Assembly (NCBI RefSeq): GCF_056712565.1
Contig: NZ_CM160072.1
Strand: one strand, 5' to 3'
Length of the DNA stretch: 64,000 nt
The position numbers and the translations under genes are program-made. Below are positions 3,514-23,814 of the stretch, one piece after another (positions within the stretch are counted from its first letter, which is position 1; each line of letters begins with the position of its first letter). The notes beneath the pieces are model-generated. The model was not told the origin of the DNA. It saw only the letters and a list, made by a program, of their open reading frames with translations, and made no database searches.

Positions 3514-4650
3514 ATGGGATGGCCTGTACCCGATATTCCAGAAAGAAAAATGCTACCTGAGCCTGTTTATCGACGCTGGATTATATTATTAATATCTATG
3601 TTAACAGTTGGTACTCTGTTTATTTTATCGGTCTGGAATTCTGCGACATACTGGGATATTTTTATTTATGGCGTTCTGCCAATGCTGTTTCTTTGGCTAT
3701 GTTTGTTTGGTATTGCGCTGAACAAATATGAACAATCCGTTGCAGCCTGTATAAGTTGGGAGTCTGAAAGACAACAAGTTAAACAACTCTGGCAACACTG
3801 GAGCCAAAAACAACTGGCAATAGTTGGGAATGTTCTTTTTACACCGGAAGAAAAAGGCATGAGTGTTTTACTGGGGCCACAGGAAGAGATCCCTGCATAT
3901 CCTAAAAAGGCACGACCGTTATTCTCTGCATCCCGTTATTCTCTTTCGTCTATATTCCATGATATTCACCAGCAACTGACACAACAATTTCCTGATTATC
4001 GTCATTATCTACATACTATCTACGTATTACAGCCTGAGAAATGGCGTGGAGAAACCGTGAGACAGGCTATTTTCCATCAATGGGACTTAGTACCTGAACG
4101 GACCAATACTCTTAATCAAATCCAGTCTCTTTATGATGAAAGATTTGACGGTCTAATTCTGGTTGTTTGTTTACAAAACTGGCCGGAGAATAAACCTGAA
4201 GATACGAGTGAACTGGTATCAGCACAGCTTATCTCCTCATCGTCATTTGTACGGCAGCACCAGATACCCGTTATTGCTGGTCTGGGGCGTGTAATGCCAT
4301 TAGAACCCGAGGAGTTGGAGCATAATCTGGATGTGTTATTTGAATATAACCAATTGGATAACAAACAACTACAGCATGTCTGGGTCTCTGGTTTAGATGA
4401 GGGAACGATAGAAAACCTTATGCAGTATGCTGAACAACATCAATGGTCACTTCCTAAAAAACGGCCCCTACACATGATTGATCATTCCTTTGGCCCTACA
4501 GGAGAGTTTATTTTTCCTGTCTCTCTGGCAATGCTGTCAGAGGCTGCCAAAGAAACTGAACAAAATCATTTAATTATCTATCAGTCAGCACAGTATGCTC
4601 AGAAAAAGAGCCTTTGCCTGATTACCCGGAAGCTTTATTTAAGGACATGA
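3514..4650 (+). CDS. Inner-membrane protein of unknown function (N-terminal TM segments plus cytoplasmic domain), encoded between PAAR and tssM
   Basis: ATG 3514 lies 1 nt after the PAAR stop. Hydrophobic segments RRWIILLISMLTVGTLFILSVW and IFIYGVLPMLFLWLCLFGIAL. Track start at 3403 would overlap the PAAR gene. Confidence 0.5.
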   Translation: MGWPVPDIPERKMLPEPVYRRWIILLISMLTVGTLFILSVWNSATYWDIFIYGVLPMLFLWLCLFGIALNKYEQSVAACISWESERQQVKQLWQHWSQKQLAIVGNVLFTPEEKGMSVLLGPQEEIPAYPKKARPLFSASRYSLSSIFHDIHQQLTQQFPDYRHYLHTIYVLQPEKWRGETVRQAIFHQWDLVPERTNTLNQIQSLYDERFDGLILVVCLQNWPENKPEDTSELVSAQLISSSSFVRQHQIPVIAGLGRVMPLEPEELEHNLDVLFEYNQLDNKQLQHVWVSGLDEGTIENLMQYAEQHQWSLPKKRPLHMIDHSFGPTGEFIFPVSLAMLSEAAKETEQNHLIIYQSAQYAQKKSLCLITRKLYLRT

Positions 4651-18327: not shown

Positions 18328-19284
18328 TCACAACACGTTTTTTATCTCCCTTCCTGCGAAGTAATCAATTATCGACTGGGCAACGTGTATCCCGGTTTGC
18401 TGGTATGACTCAACGGTGGCGGCCGCGATATGCGGCGTTGTAATGATATTTTTGGCATGTAGCAGTGGGCTAAATTGCGCCAACGGTTCAGAGCTAAACA
18501 CATCCAGCGCCGCAAACACATTTCGTTCTTCAATCACCTGAAGTAAAGCGCCCTCATCCAGCAACTTTCCCCTTGCGGCATTGATGATCAGAGCACCATT
18601 GCGCATCATCGACAAATATTTATGACTAATGAAGTTCTCCAGCTCAGAAGAAAAAGGCAAAAGAACAATGATGACATGCGACTGCATAAAGATATCTTCA
18701 ATTGATACAAACTGAACTCCAGCTTTGTCAGCAACCTGATAGTCGGGTTGTTTGTCAAAAGCTAAAAGCTCAACATCAAAACCGGATAACCTTTTCGCCA
18801 GAGTTTTACCTATATTACCGTAGCCAACCAGGCCAATCCGTTTCCCTTGTAATTCACAGCCATGCGACTCACCCCAGTAGCCATTTTGCATCGCATGATA
18901 GCTGCCAGGGATATTTCTCATGCTCGCGAAGATAAGTCCAATGATAAATTCCGCAACCGCATTTGAATTAATCCCAACCGCATTATTGACAACAATACCG
19001 GATTGCTGTGCCGCACGAAGATCAATATTGTCTATCCCCGTCCCGAATCTCGATATTATTCTCACACCAGGCAGCAATGATAGCGTGTCCGCCTGATAAC
19101 CATCTTTTCCGGCGATGACCGCGCAAATAGATTCTCGTAATGCAGTGGATTCTGATTTAAGCAGATGCTCCACATTATTCTTAATAATAAGATTAAAATT
19201 ATTCTCTCTTAGCAACTTGCTGGCGGAAACACAGCGTGCTGAAAAGCTGGGGAAGGTGACCAGAACATTTTTCATAGCGGACAC
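18328..19284 (-). CDS. D-isomer-specific 2-hydroxyacid dehydrogenase family, NAD-binding (318 aa)
   Basis: GxGxxG motif GLVGYGNIGK and overall family pattern. Last gene of the minus-strand operon. Confidence 0.75.
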   Translation of the reverse strand: MSAMKNVLVTFPSFSARCVSASKLLRENNFNLIIKNNVEHLLKSESTALRESICAVIAGKDGYQADTLSLLPGVRIISRFGTGIDNIDLRAAQQSGIVVNNAVGINSNAVAEFIIGLIFASMRNIPGSYHAMQNGYWGESHGCELQGKRIGLVGYGNIGKTLAKRLSGFDVELLAFDKQPDYQVADKAGVQFVSIEDIFMQSHVIIVLLPFSSELENFISHKYLSMMRNGALIINAARGKLLDEGALLQVIEERNVFAALDVFSSEPLAQFSPLLHAKNIITTPHIAAATVESYQQTGIHVAQSIIDYFAGREIKNVL

Positions 19285-19346
19285 TCACTTCAAAGAACGC
19301 CACCCCAAAAGATGGCGTGACCGGTTACTGTATTTATATTTTGAAA

Positions 19347-19943
19347 TTATGAATTTGCTTTAATGCCGAGTGCACCTCCTGGATGATATAAGCCGAAATC
19401 AGCACGAGTAAATTTTTTCAATTCAGAGAGTGCAAGCGCCACCGCATCACCAACAACCAGAACAACAGTCGACGAGCATGACGGTGCTAAACCTAAATTA
19501 TCCGCCTCACTTTTGACGGGGATTTCAACAGATAAATCACAACTTATCGCAAGCGATGAGTGATGACTGCGGGTAAAAGAGATCAAATAATTACCCATTT
19601 TTTTCAAACTAGGCAGTGTCGCCAGGATTTCCGCCGTCTCACCACTGTTTGAAATAAGAATAACAACATCGTCTTTCGCCACCATTCCAAGGTCGCCGTG
19701 TACCGCTTCCGTACCGTGAACAAAAAACGAGGGAGTTCCGGTACTGGCAAAAGTTGCTGCGAGTTTTCTGGCAATAATACCGGACTTACCAACACCAATA
19801 AAAACAACTTTTCCCTGACAAGATTGTAATACTTTAATTAAATTAGCGAATTCAGAAAGTGGGGAATAAATAACCTCTTCTACTGCTTTAAGTTCGTTAT
19901 GCATAAAATGTTTAATGAGATAGATAAGATCCGTGTTATTCAT
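19347..19943 (-). CDS. SIS-domain sugar-phosphate isomerase-like protein (198 aa)
   Basis: SIS signature VFIGVGKSGIIARKLAATFASTGTPSFFVH...ISNSGET. Confidence 0.7.
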   Translation of the reverse strand: MNNTDLIYLIKHFMHNELKAVEEVIYSPLSEFANLIKVLQSCQGKVVFIGVGKSGIIARKLAATFASTGTPSFFVHGTEAVHGDLGMVAKDDVVILISNSGETAEILATLPSLKKMGNYLISFTRSHHSSLAISCDLSVEIPVKSEADNLGLAPSCSSTVVLVVGDAVALALSELKKFTRADFGLYHPGGALGIKANS

Positions 19944-19945
19944 TT

Positions 19946-21121
19946 TTATTCTCCCTGATTAATATTTTTAATTACACTCACAAGACGCGTAAGCCCCATA
20001 TATAATTTTTCTCGACCGCAGGCCAGGTTCAGACGAAGGTAGCCCTCCCCCTCCGTTCCATAGACATGCCCCGCCATAATGCCCACTTTGCCTTCATGAA
20101 TTAATCGACTGTAGAATTCATCAAAAGGATAACCAATAGCAGAACAATCTATCCAGGAAAAATAGCAACCATCAGCTGGCCTTACGATCAATTCTGGAAT
20201 ATTTTCATTCAGATACTGCTGGGTGAATTGAATGTTAGAGGCAATATGTGCCTTTAATGACTTTAACCATCCCTCACATTCGTTATAGGCAATAATAGTT
20301 GCAATTATATTCAGTACTGATGGGGAGTTTACAAAATCGCGATACCTCGATATCGTTCTGAACTTATGATTAAAATTATCGTCAGTTGAAATCATATACG
20401 ATCCTGTTAGTGCAGGAACATTAAATGTTTTCGATATCGAGTTAAATACTACTACTTTTTCTTTTTTTATTTTAAGCGCGGATGTAAAGCTACGATTAAA
20501 AACAAAATCACTATGGATTTCATCTGAACATAACCAGACATTATGCCTTGTACAGCTTGCAGCGATTTTATGCAGTTCTTCTTCCGACCAGACTGTTCCT
20601 GTCGGGTTATGAGGATTACATAATAACACCATCTTTGCGCTTTTAATCTTAAGATCAAAATCTTGCCAGTTGATAGCGTAGCCCCCCTCATTTTTTATAA
20701 TCAAAGAGGCTGTCAGAATATTTCGCTCGCTATGTTTAATTACATCAAAAAATGCATTATAGACAGGTGTAAAAACGAGAATATTATCACCATGCGATGT
20801 CAATAACTCTATTGCTTTTGCAATAGAGTACATCACACTGGGGCTATAGGTTATCCATTCAGGTTTAATATCTGTTTGATATTGTTGATAATACCAGTTT
20901 ACTATCGCATTCAGATATTCACCATGTTGCCAACGACTGTACCCTAAAATCGGGTGTTCCAGGCGTTTTTTTAATGCTCTGGTGATAGCGTCTGGTATCG
21001 GAAGATCCATATCTGAAATAGAGAATGGTAGTACATCTTTTACACCAAATCTGTCCTCGCAAAAGTCCCATTGGGTACAATATGTTCCTTTGCGGGAAAC
21101 AGGAGTATTAAAAACATCCAT
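19946..21121 (-). CDS. PLP-dependent aminotransferase class I/II, MalY/PatB-like C-S lyase (391 aa)
   Basis: Family pattern including the lysine-containing ...NSISKTFN... region. Overlaps the start of the upstream gene by 1 nt. Confidence 0.75.
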   Translation of the reverse strand: MDVFNTPVSRKGTYCTQWDFCEDRFGVKDVLPFSISDMDLPIPDAITRALKKRLEHPILGYSRWQHGEYLNAIVNWYYQQYQTDIKPEWITYSPSVMYSIAKAIELLTSHGDNILVFTPVYNAFFDVIKHSERNILTASLIIKNEGGYAINWQDFDLKIKSAKMVLLCNPHNPTGTVWSEEELHKIAASCTRHNVWLCSDEIHSDFVFNRSFTSALKIKKEKVVVFNSISKTFNVPALTGSYMISTDDNFNHKFRTISRYRDFVNSPSVLNIIATIIAYNECEGWLKSLKAHIASNIQFTQQYLNENIPELIVRPADGCYFSWIDCSAIGYPFDEFYSRLIHEGKVGIMAGHVYGTEGEGYLRLNLACGREKLYMGLTRLVSVIKNINQGE

Positions 21122-22701
21122 CAGTATATCCCCATATAGTTATCCATATCCCGACGCAGGGCGATGACTTTAGTGCCGATAATGACTTGTAGGGTATTTT
21201 GATCAAGTTTAACAACCGCAATCCCGCCAGCTCTTTTTATTGCAACTTCGTCAATCAATCCCATATCTGCGATTGTTAAACGTAAACGAGTTACGCAATT
21301 ATCCAGTGACTTAATATTCTCTTTACCACCAAGTGCCTTAACCATCTGCTCCGCCGCTTGCAGCTCTGATTTATCAGGAGTTGGGATATCCGCTATAGCC
21401 GTATCTTCGTGAACGTTCAGCGTGACAGGATTGGACTCTTCACGGCCTACGGTCATCAGGTTAAATTTAAGAATGGTCCAACGGAACACAAAGTAATAAA
21501 TGAAGAAATAGGCCACTTCGACACACACCGCGATCGGCCAACCTGTTCTTGTGCCACGCAATACGCCAAAGCTAATAAATTGAATCAGATCGCCAGTAAA
21601 TCCCATCTTCACGCCCATATATGGCAGAACCATGTTAGCGAATCCATTCATAAAGGCATGGAAGACAAACAGCAGTGGACTGACAAATAAGAACAGAAAC
21701 TCAATCGGTTCGCTGACGCCGCCAATAATCACCGTAAGCACCCCGGAAATAAGCAATGCTTTGATAGCCTTTCTGTTTTGAGCATGAGCAGTGCGATACA
21801 TCGCCAGCGCGGCACCAGCCAGACCATACTGAATCATCAGTTTGCCCTGCTCCATTTTCCCCGCCAAATCCAGCGGAATGACCGCATTCTCTTTAACGTA
21901 TGCCATAAACATGTTCAGGGTGCCGTAATATTCTTCGCCGCCAATCACAGCCGAACCGCCGATTGGCGTAAAGCGGAAAACTGACGTCACCAGATGGTTT
22001 AAGCCAAAAGGAATCGTCACACGTTCGGCAACTGCATAGAAGAAATAACCAACAGGACCGGAAGTTGAAATCCAGTGTCCAATGAGCATGAAAAGATTGA
22101 AAAACGGCGGCCAGATAAAAGGAATGATCAGACCAAATCCACTCATCACAATCAGTGTAATGATAGGCACCAGACGTGGGCCGCTATAAAAACCTAATGA
22201 TTCTGGAATGCGTAAATTAACGATCTTTTTATACATGCTGGCGACTAATAACCCAGCAACAATTCCCCCCAACACGCTGGTATTGTAGGACTGGATCCCC
22301 AGAATGATGGTTTGCCCATGTGTCGACATTTGGTCAGCAACGACCAATAAGTCGTGCTGTTTAAGATAAAAGTTCGTTCCCAGATGCATCGCCATAAAAC
22401 CAATTAAGCCAGAAAAAGCACCATAGGCTTTATCCTCTTTATCTTTTAATAATCCTAAGGGAATCGCTATCGCAAACAATACAGGTAAATTAACAAAGGC
22501 AAACAAACCAAGACTAACAATGAAATCAAGTATGGTTTTAATTATTGGAATAGCCAGAAATGGAATTAACTTTGCCATATCATCACTGGCTAAACCACTT
22601 CCCAGCCCTAGCATCATGCCACATACACTTAGCAGAGCAATGGGATACATAAATGCCTTCCCCAGGCTCTGAAAAAAACTCCAGGCTTTCTTTTGTTTCA
22701 T
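21121..22701 (-). CDS. PTS EIICB component, glucose/maltose family (526 aa)
   Basis: Multi-TM EIIC domain and C-terminal EIIB domain with the phospho-cysteine motif NCVTRLRL. Confidence 0.8.
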   Translation of the reverse strand: MKQKKAWSFFQSLGKAFMYPIALLSVCGMMLGLGSGLASDDMAKLIPFLAIPIIKTILDFIVSLGLFAFVNLPVLFAIAIPLGLLKDKEDKAYGAFSGLIGFMAMHLGTNFYLKQHDLLVVADQMSTHGQTIILGIQSYNTSVLGGIVAGLLVASMYKKIVNLRIPESLGFYSGPRLVPIITLIVMSGFGLIIPFIWPPFFNLFMLIGHWISTSGPVGYFFYAVAERVTIPFGLNHLVTSVFRFTPIGGSAVIGGEEYYGTLNMFMAYVKENAVIPLDLAGKMEQGKLMIQYGLAGAALAMYRTAHAQNRKAIKALLISGVLTVIIGGVSEPIEFLFLFVSPLLFVFHAFMNGFANMVLPYMGVKMGFTGDLIQFISFGVLRGTRTGWPIAVCVEVAYFFIYYFVFRWTILKFNLMTVGREESNPVTLNVHEDTAIADIPTPDKSELQAAEQMVKALGGKENIKSLDNCVTRLRLTIADMGLIDEVAIKRAGGIAVVKLDQNTLQVIIGTKVIALRRDMDNYMGIY

Positions 22702-22732: not shown

Positions 22733-23557
22733 TTAGTCCATTAATACTTTGGTACGAATAGAGAGATATAATTTTTCTTCTAAAATTAATTCATATTTAA
22801 AAGTGGCATACAGATACCGTTCAATTTCATGAATTGCGCGCTGTAACAGGATGTCCTTTTCAAGAAACTGTTCATAGATATCACCAATATCTTTCTGTTT
22901 TATTTTTTCATTGCATAACACGCGACTTGAAAAATATTTAAGGTGCATCATAAATCTGGAATAGTTAAATGAACTTCTGTCCACCTTTCTGTTATAAACA
23001 ACTTCAATAAGCTCCGTGATTATTTGCGACAACTCAATAATCCGTACTGATTCATAATCAACTGAATTTTCATAATTATTTAAAATATGCAATGCTATAA
23101 AACCAATCTCATCATCAGGAAGTTGAACGCTGAATTGCTCATTAATGATAGTTAATGCATCGCGACTTATCGCATACTCTGCTTTGTACAACGCTTTGAT
23201 TTCATCAAGGAAAACATTATTAATTTGTATACCTGAAACGACTCGGGATATTGCATTCGAAATGTGATCCGCAAGAATCAATAGTAGCGATGGATTGAGA
23301 TTTTTTTCGAGATTTTTCTCCGCATATTGCACTATTTTTTCGGCAACAAACACATACTCAATATCTACATGTTCAATCAATTTATAAAGTTTGTTTTTTT
23401 GTTCATTTCTGACATAAAAAATCCGGTTAGCCGGATGCTCAGGGACCGACATTCCATATTTTTTGTTGTAACCGACGCCAGGCCCAGAAATGATAACCTC
23501 CTGTCCATTCATCGATGCCTGTACACAATTATTGTTCATGACTTTTTCGATGATCAT
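22733..23557 (-). CDS. BglG/LicT-family transcription antiterminator (CAT RNA-binding domain plus two PRDs)
   Basis: N-terminus MIIEKVMNNNCVQASMNGQEVIISGPGVGYNKKYG resembles the CAT domain of BglG/LicT. The start is moved in from the track ORF because a terminator/RAT leader lies immediately upstream. Confidence 0.75.
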   Translation of the reverse strand: MIIEKVMNNNCVQASMNGQEVIISGPGVGYNKKYGMSVPEHPANRIFYVRNEQKNKLYKLIEHVDIEYVFVAEKIVQYAEKNLEKNLNPSLLLILADHISNAISRVVSGIQINNVFLDEIKALYKAEYAISRDALTIINEQFSVQLPDDEIGFIALHILNNYENSVDYESVRIIELSQIITELIEVVYNRKVDRSSFNYSRFMMHLKYFSSRVLCNEKIKQKDIGDIYEQFLEKDILLQRAIHEIERYLYATFKYELILEEKLYLSIRTKVLMD

Positions 23558-23568
23558 TCCATGGCTCC

Positions 23569-23642
23569 AAAAAAAAAGGCAAGGCACGTCAGAAGTAATA
23601 ACTACTTCAAACATTGCCTTGCCTGATTTAACAGTTACAAGA
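23569..23642 (-). promoter_or_regulatory. RAT-like sequence overlapping a leader terminator (PRD-antiterminator attenuator)
   Basis: On the minus strand, cttgtaactgttaaatcaggcaaggca resembles the bgl RAT (ttgttactg...caggcaaaacc). It overlaps the 5' arm of a hairpin (ggcaaggca / tgccttgcc, inner gaagta/tacttc) that is followed by 9 U, 12 nt before the ATG. Confidence 0.55.
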
Positions 23643-23814
23643 TGATTAACTAATGCGTATACATTACACGGAATTGTGCTTAATTAAAGAGATGGTCGGC
23701 TTATTTTTCAAGCCGACATTCAAATATCCGACATCAGTCACAAAACCAGCGTCTAATATTCAGGTAAATGTTATCTATTCAACGAAATATAAATTCATTG
23801 AATAAATAAAAACA

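Follow-up and report, generated by a model that had tools for sequence, protein, structure and literature searches.

In the E. coli bglGFB operon, the first RAT hairpin (RAT1) is overlapped by a terminator, t1, and is followed by bglG as the first gene, which places the antiterminator under autoregulation; a second RAT and terminator lie between bglG and bglF. The canonical RAT has the form G1G2A3...A/U26 A/G27 C28C29, in which a bottom stem of two G:C pairs is joined to a lower asymmetric loop (PMC1635312; alignment A4). The CAT dimer of LicT touches both internal loops of its RAT (PMC3105407). LicT requires A26, and A26 and U8 are the major specificity determinants (PMC3105407, PMC1635312). 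The RATs of the B. subtilis sac systems, sacPA/SacT and sacB/SacY, have G26 and a UAAA tetraloop with a non-canonical closing pair (PMC1635312), and the ptsG RAT of the GlcT system is distinguished by two near-symmetric triple base pairings and a distinct lower loop (PMC1635312). It is established for this family that an EIIB-type permease phosphorylates PRD1 when idle (PMC12591593). Only one Rfam family, RF03530 (bglG-cis-reg), describes leaders of this kind.

The leader examined here is located in a 64 kb stretch of DNA (the window) that matched S88, APEC O1, IHE3034 and others at 100% identity over the query, and represents the chromosome of an extraintestinal-pathogenic E. coli. Island DNA begins directly after the amiC stop codon, at the end of the core genes recB-recD-argA-amiC, and homology with K-12 stops at 23814, marking the island boundary. 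On the 3' side of amiC, K-12 has an amiC terminator of its own and the tRNA genes metZWV, neither of which is present at this position here. The island runs on to at least coordinate 1 and includes type VI secretion genes, annotated in S88 as tssE, tssJ, tssG and a VasL-domain gene.

The island opens with a compact five-gene operon on the minus strand, which is also the strand of the attenuator. The antiterminator gene is first and encodes a BglG/SacY-family protein of 274 aa (22733..23557; Pfam, NCBIfam and PDB matches to LicT and GlcT; 'PRD domain-containing protein' in RefSeq). It is followed by genes for a MalX-like PTS EIICB (21121..22701; NCBIfam TIGR02004, EIIB motif NCVTRLRL), a PatB/MalY C-S lyase (19946..21121), a single-SIS KpsF/GutQ-like protein (19347..19943) and a PGDH-like 2-hydroxyacid dehydrogenase (18328..19284), the last three being assigned from NCBIfam and the RefSeq annotation of S88. 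The EIICB scored 535.6 bits against TIGR02004, under the cut-off of 632 for that model, and its EIIB_glc domain scored 59.7 bits, over the cut-off of 45.75 (NCBIfam). A PTS EII permease of the cognate type, with an EIIB domain, is therefore encoded in the same operon as the antiterminator and, by analogy with the family, is presumed to be the sensor that phosphorylates PRD1. This permease belongs to the glucose/maltose EIICB family and has no EIIA, whereas that of bgl belongs to the beta-glucoside EIIBCA family; the permease of the GlcT/ptsG system of B. subtilis is also a glucose-family PTS EII. Together, the MalX-like EIICB, C-S lyase, SIS isomerase and dehydrogenase fit no characterised sugar pathway that we could name.

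The operon corresponds to c3405-c3410 of PAI-CFT073-metV (PMC2831201), which that study lists among the regions kept by each of the four UPEC genomes it compared. It was found in 1689 of 5426 complete E. coli genomes (~31%). Both this operon and bgl are AT-rich and horizontally acquired.

The leader, read 5' to 3' on the minus strand, is ...aucAUCUUGUAACUGUUAAAUCAGGCAAGGCAAuguuugaaguaguuauuacuucugacgUGCCUUGCCUUUUUUUUUggagccauggaAUG. A 29 nt RAT-like antiterminator hairpin, AUCUUGUAACUGUUAAAUCAGGCAAGGCA, was located at 23643..23615 from an exact pattern match, a covariance model, MFE folding and conservation. Its conserved core, TTGTAACTGTTAAATCAGGCAAG, lies at 23640..23618, where TTGTAACTG-TTAAAT-CAGGCAAG is the sole exact match in the window to the pattern TTGTWACTGN6CAGGCAAR. 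As Rfam had no usable RAT model, a covariance model (R1) was built from 25 canonical RATs with the lineage under test excluded, namely the two K-12 bgl RATs taken from the genome and 23 RATs found upstream of distant LicT homologues (30-39% identical) in Firmicutes and other Enterobacterales (alignment A4). In an unfiltered scan of both strands of the 64 kb, the top match was 23640..23619 on the minus strand (21.3 bits, E about 3.3e-5), and the runner-up scored 17.0 bits. An earlier note on this DNA had reported a RAT-like sequence in the leader, and both the motif match and the top covariance-model score confirm it on the minus strand. The bgl RATs, which are part of the training set and were used as controls, scored 40-42 bits, about twice the score of the site here.

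Two further matches to the covariance model were rejected. That at 3708..3738 on the minus strand (17 bits), GGAUUGUU...CAAUACC in the RNA (GGATTGTT-N15-CAATACC), has canonical RAT ends but was judged to be due to chance because it lacks both a top stem and a terminator and lies antisense inside an open reading frame. The third, at 22425..22455 on the minus strand (E 0.05), is inside the EIICB gene.

A search of the region against Rfam, by gathering score or E-value, returned only chance matches to microRNA and snoRNA families. RF03530 aligned over its full length with 23553..23675 at 14.1 bits (E 3.4), far under its gathering score of 80; however, the genuine E. coli bgl leaders reached only 22-24 bits and are likewise under 80, so this model is too narrow to decide. 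No metabolite riboswitch family was detected in the leader at E <= 10. The term 'riboswitch-like', which had been applied to this element, is thus a loose one: it holds for an RNA switch that depends on a protein, but the ligand is not a metabolite and no metabolite aptamer was detectable in the leader.

Folding of the RAT gave an MFE hairpin of -6.3 kcal/mol with the predicted pairs U2.G27, C3-G26, U4-A25, U5-A24, G6-C23, U7.G22, C10-G21, U11-A20 and G12-C19. The core architecture of a RAT is present, with a middle stem (U4-A25/U5-A24/G6-C23), an upper asymmetric loop (7-9 | 22) and a top stem (C10-G21/U11-A20/G12-C19). The alignment to known RATs that had been suggested as a check gave a divided answer, as the covariance-model alignment is restricted to model positions 4-25, with positions 1-3 and 26-30 unaligned, and the canonical bottom stem of two G:C pairs and lower asymmetric loop (3 | 26, 27) were not found at this RAT. 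In the E. coli type, A1U2C3/G26G27C28A29, the C3-G26 and U2.G27 pairs were predicted to extend the helix continuously, without an obvious lower loop. In the RAT type of Enterobacter sp. ENT03, G-C and C-G pairs lie beneath an A.G mismatch. The predicted RAT is therefore a divergent version of the usual protein-binding site. Because the CAT of LicT contacts both loops and the canonical lower loop is replaced here, the geometry of CAT binding at the lower half is uncertain.

The RAT overlaps the 5' arm of an intrinsic terminator hairpin, AGGCAAGGCA...UGCCUUGCCU (23577..23624, minus strand), which was identified by folding, RNAalifold and pair conservation. This hairpin has 20 pairs (10 + 4 + 6) and a 5-nt loop, and folds at -27.3 kcal/mol; the entire leader folds at -40.9 kcal/mol (z = -4.1 vs shuffles). 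The run of nine U residues, read directly from the sequence, is at 23577..23569, and its first U pairs with the A at 23624. From the last U (23569) it is 12 nt to the A of the antiterminator ATG (23557..23555), and the 11 intervening nt include the Shine-Dalgarno sequence GGAG (23568..23565); this initiation region (23555..23568, minus strand) was assigned from the sequence, the RefSeq CDS start and the alignment of the N-terminus. The overlap of the RAT with the arm of a strong hairpin, the nine U residues and the 12 nt to the start codon had all been described in the earlier note, and each was found at these positions, the overlap being the 10 nt at 23624..23615.

This 10-nt segment (23615..23624, minus strand), common to the 3' half of the RAT and the 5' arm of the terminator, was identified by constrained folding as the switch. 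Folding of the two alternative structures, also put forward as a check, found them to be mutually exclusive, with these 10 nt in common. When the RAT was forced or its segment blocked, the pairing that remained was confined to the top of the terminator hairpin, at about -9.5 kcal/mol, and an unpaired 3' arm lay between it and the U tract. As this arm parts the hairpin from the U tract, the residual structure formed alongside the RAT is no longer an intrinsic terminator. The terminator, which lies upstream of the regulated genes and ends in U9, is far more stable than the RAT (-27.3 vs -6.3 kcal/mol), and because the two structures exclude each other, termination is predicted to be the default and read-through to need a factor that stabilises the RAT.

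The arrangement follows that of bglGFB in its order of RAT, overlapping terminator and antiterminator gene. The energies are also nearly equal, being -6.4 kcal/mol for bgl RAT1 against -6.3 here and -26.0 kcal/mol for the t1 region against -27.3 here. The 10-nt overlap is longer than in bgl. In contrast to bgl, no second RAT or terminator was found by the covariance model or a terminator scan in the 31-nt gap between the antiterminator and EIICB genes.

Protein searches identified orthologues of the antiterminator in E. coli and E. whittamii (94% identity) and, at 78-80% identity, in two Citrobacter genomes, Atlantibacter hermannii and several metagenome contigs. A distant branch with 42-44% identity comprises Enterobacter sp. 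ENT03 and the Logan contigs L005-L007, and the next relatives after this orthologue group are LicT proteins of Firmicutes (<=39% identity). Even the distant branch retains the core order antiterminator-EIICB-aminotransferase-SIS, and the loci occupy at least three unrelated genomic neighbourhoods. The regulated genes, at 18328..22701 on the minus strand of the window, 7860-11173 of L005 and 1170-4483 of L007, are a conserved set, although the dehydrogenase gene is missing from ENT03-type loci and is split in one further locus (L004).

Twelve loci, from E. coli, E. whittamii, the two Citrobacter genomes, Atlantibacter, Enterobacter sp. ENT03 and Logan contigs, were picked by protein homology alone. 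All 12 were found to carry a RAT core, CTTGTNACTRTTNAATYAGGCAAG, 84-86 nt before the ATG, together with an overlapping terminator and a U tract. The orthologue terminators have energies of -24 to -27 kcal/mol and a 5' arm overlapping the RAT, and are followed by at least seven U residues. In a reverse test, the RAT DNA motif alone was searched against 241 million metagenome records and gave eight matches, and at each of them (8/8) an antiterminator orthologue (43-96% identity) starts about 85 nt downstream. As the other loci had been picked by protein, this test removes the circularity. A partial homologue with 55% identity (L090; Logan ERR3077528, 450-720) was left out of the comparison as a decayed copy; it lies downstream of an amiC-like gene, its RAT (ctgattcaaccgttaaattggtgcg) carries many mutations and its antiterminator reading frame is truncated.

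In the ten-sequence alignment A5, 23 of 24 columns of the RAT core are invariant, against 6 of 12 upstream and about 17 of 31 that are specific to the terminator. Within Escherichia, Citrobacter and Atlantibacter, the RAT core is invariant save for position 8 (A/C in Atlantibacter). The paired cells of the RAT core are 100% paired in 13 orthologous leaders, with a single compensatory pair, G12-C19 of the top stem being replaced by A12-U19 in the ENT03 lineage; this covariation is weak on its own because one lineage represents a single evolutionary event. For the terminator, 95% of cells are paired, vs 28-54% with slid partners, and three pairs have changed on both sides. One of these changes, G27:C to A27:U, is present in four sequences, and the U2-N27 pair of the RAT is also kept. 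RNAalifold independently returned the terminator as the consensus structure. In the ENT03 branch, the terminator has a wholly different sequence (GGGCAAUAC.../...GUAUUGCCC) and the RAT overlap is still present. Conservation of the RAT by sequence and of the terminator by structure fits the pattern expected where a structural element lies behind a protein-binding site.

The start of the island directly after the amiC stop codon, where it replaces the K-12 amiC terminator, would also be consistent with a constitutive terminator or insulator, for example for amiC, in which the likeness to a RAT is fortuitous. However, the distance from RAT to ATG is fixed also at loci without amiC upstream, such as L005, where the upstream gene encodes an AP_endonuc_2 protein, and L091, where it encodes an LTXXQ protein. 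Conservation of the RAT core also greatly exceeds that of its flanks, the site has an E-value of 3e-5 under the covariance model, and a separate hairpin is present between amiC and the leader (23717..23695). It is therefore extremely unlikely that the element is no more than a constitutive terminator, and an attenuator is the preferred reading.

The separate hairpin, GTCGGCTT-N7-AAGCCGAC (23695..23717, minus strand), has a poor U tract after it. Among Escherichia lineages, the stem shows compensatory changes (GCCAGA/TCTGGC in L008), and this hairpin may be a replacement for the amiC terminator.

The product of the first gene contains a CAT_RBD domain (residues 1-55, E 2.8e-14) and a PRD1 domain (residues 73-160, E 5.6e-24), and gave a weak Pfam match to PRD2 (residues 180-251, E 0.038). 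Its N-terminal domain also matched the LicT CAT structure in the PDB (1L1C, E 7.7e-4). The best NCBIfam matches, LicT (225.6 bits; cut-off 300) and GlcT (178 bits), are both under the equivalog cut-offs. The N-terminus, MIIEK..., aligns with residue 1 of the LicT and BglG homologues. An upstream in-frame ATG at 23614, which would give a 293-aa reading frame, was discounted both as a start and as a leader peptide: the codon is ACG or AGG in Citrobacter, Atlantibacter and L093 and hence not conserved, and the RefSeq start gives 274 aa.

The PRD1 histidines H98 and H157, equivalent to His100 and His159 of LicT, are invariant in alignment A1, and H205, equivalent to the first PRD2 histidine (LicT His207), is conserved. 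The second PRD2 histidine (LicT His269; residue 268) is replaced by Arg in the Escherichia, Citrobacter and Atlantibacter group; it is His in the ENT03 group and in the Firmicutes relatives, and Asn in BglG. This difference between the orthologues may have a bearing on HPr-dependent activation.

The RAT here aligns with the LicT/SacY type, having the upper loop and the 3-bp middle stem, unlike the ptsG RAT of GlcT, although GlcT is the second-best NCBIfam match of the protein. It shares with the bgl RATs the upper two-thirds (UUGU.ACUG...CAGGCAA) and differs in the lower part, which is G1G2A3...A26A27C28C29 in bgl and A1U2C3...G26G27C28A29 here. The G26 and the UAAA tetraloop with a non-canonical closing pair are as in sacPA and sacB. 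Position 3 is C here, U in sacB and A in sacPA, and position 8 is A here (C in Atlantibacter), U in sacB and the LicT/SacY targets, and G in sacPA. The B. subtilis sac systems differ from this one, in which the RAT is without the GG/CC bottom stem and the host is Gram-negative. The CAT contact residues are Pro26, Tyr30 and Asn31, with Ala at 26 in the ENT03 branch, whereas BglG has Arg, Phe and Gln, and LicT likewise has Arg and Gln at the equivalents of positions 26 and 31. The strictly conserved Phe31 of LicT is thus Tyr in this protein. Pro26 is SacT-like, Asn31 is SacY-like and the Ala26 of the ENT03 branch is SacY-like (PMC3105407).

These positions bear on whether the RAT could be functional but read, wholly or partly, by another CAT protein such as BglG. 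Cross-talk between RATs of the family is documented (PMC3105407, PMC1635312), and the upper half of the RAT here is near those of bgl. However, the RAT has G26 and A8 where bgl has A26 and U8, and LicT requires A26; the cis-encoded protein has the SacT/SacY-like Pro26 and Asn31 in place of the Arg and Gln of BglG and LicT; and in the metagenome motif scan this RAT subtype was seen solely beside this orthologue group. Reading by another CAT protein is thus improbable, and the altered specificity positions in both RAT and CAT are as expected of a pair that is insulated from the resident BglG. The RAT subtype, CUUGUNACURUUNAAUYAGGCAAG, has a rebuilt lower half without the GG/CC stem, and its partner CAT domains have Pro/Ala26, Tyr/Phe30 and Asn31. 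More tentatively, the two may make up a class of their own; such a class, insulated from BglG, possibly with another lower-loop geometry and controlling a UPEC-enriched PTS operon, is conceivable but somewhat doubtful at present.

Upstream of the RAT, a block, GTGTAATGTATACGCATTAGT (GTGTAnnGTATAnnCATnAGT; 23649..23669, minus strand), 10-34 nt from the RAT, is kept in Escherichia, Citrobacter, Atlantibacter and L093 while its flanks diverge. It is a candidate for the -10/start-site region, as judged from its conservation. When the minus strand from amiC to the RAT was scanned for sigma-70 promoters by a simple method, none was recognised. A CRP-like half-site, TGTGA-N6-TCGGA (23727..23742, minus strand), lies at a fixed distance upstream of the RAT: TGTGA-N6-TC is 100-102 nt upstream of RAT position 3 in the leaders of E. 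coli, E. whittamii, Atlantibacter, L091 and L093, is 90 nt upstream in the ENT03 lineage, and is degenerate in the two Citrobacter genomes. The spacing is kept despite divergent upstream regions, and this hints at catabolite control.

In E. coli ES7 (L088; NZ_CM184333.1), the leader is interrupted by ISEc68, an IS5-family element (L088 coordinates 300-1503; window-equivalent 23653..23650). The element is inserted at the target TTAG, about 10 nt upstream of the RAT and between the conserved block and the RAT, with a 4-bp target duplication. This is the sole leader among 1688 to be interrupted by such an insertion, which recalls the activation of bgl by IS elements.

The operon has a GC content of 33-44% vs 52-55% in its flanks and in this resembles the H-NS-silenced bgl operon (PMC2646131). 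Together with the outcome of the sigma-70 scan and the one decayed copy, L090, this raises the question of whether the element, as part of a cryptic and silenced operon of low GC content, is now an evolutionary relic that regulates nothing. Against this, intact reading frames are present in 1686 E. coli genomes and across genera, and the conservation of the RAT sequence and the compensatory changes in the terminator indicate ongoing selection, making a relic very unlikely.

The interpretation of the leader as a bgl-type RAT/terminator attenuator is therefore supported, all of its predictions at the level of sequence having held. It is highly likely that this attenuator, of the BglG/SacY type, is functional and that the antiterminator encoded in cis reads it, and cross-talk, a constitutive terminator and a relic are each less likely than this. 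In the proposed mechanism, the nascent RNA would by default form the strong terminator, and RNA polymerase would halt at U9, 11 nt before the first gene. By family precedent, the antiterminator would become active when PRD1 is no longer phosphorylated by the EIICB of the operon, the permease then being occupied with sugar transport. The CAT dimer of the active antiterminator would bind and stabilise the weak RAT hairpin and, because the RAT sequesters 10 nt of the 5' arm of the terminator, transcription would read through into the antiterminator gene and the four further genes. As the antiterminator gene is the first behind a single attenuator, positive autoregulation would follow. We infer the RNA binding, the PTS control and the inducer by analogy, and the substrate dependence and autoregulation predicted in the earlier note would likewise be expected from what is known of the family.

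The mechanism is standard for this gene family and is unsurprising to a specialist. A search of the accessible literature found no description of this leader and only one paper that mentions c3405-c3410 (PMC2831201), and RefSeq has no regulatory feature annotated at this leader. As the mechanism is a textbook one, the value of the finding is practical, in that the unannotated leader of c3405-c3410 in PAI-CFT073-metV gains a regulatory annotation. Deletion of the terminator or of the EIICB gene is predicted to turn the operon on, which would aid in finding its substrate. The locus also provides a natural CAT-RAT pair with altered specificity positions, in which the avoidance of cross-talk with BglG could be studied. 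In the work of Lloyd et al. in 2009 (J Bacteriol), deletion of c3405-c3410 reportedly attenuated CFT073 in mice. If that result is true, this regulator, with its inducer, would be relevant to fitness in the urinary tract.
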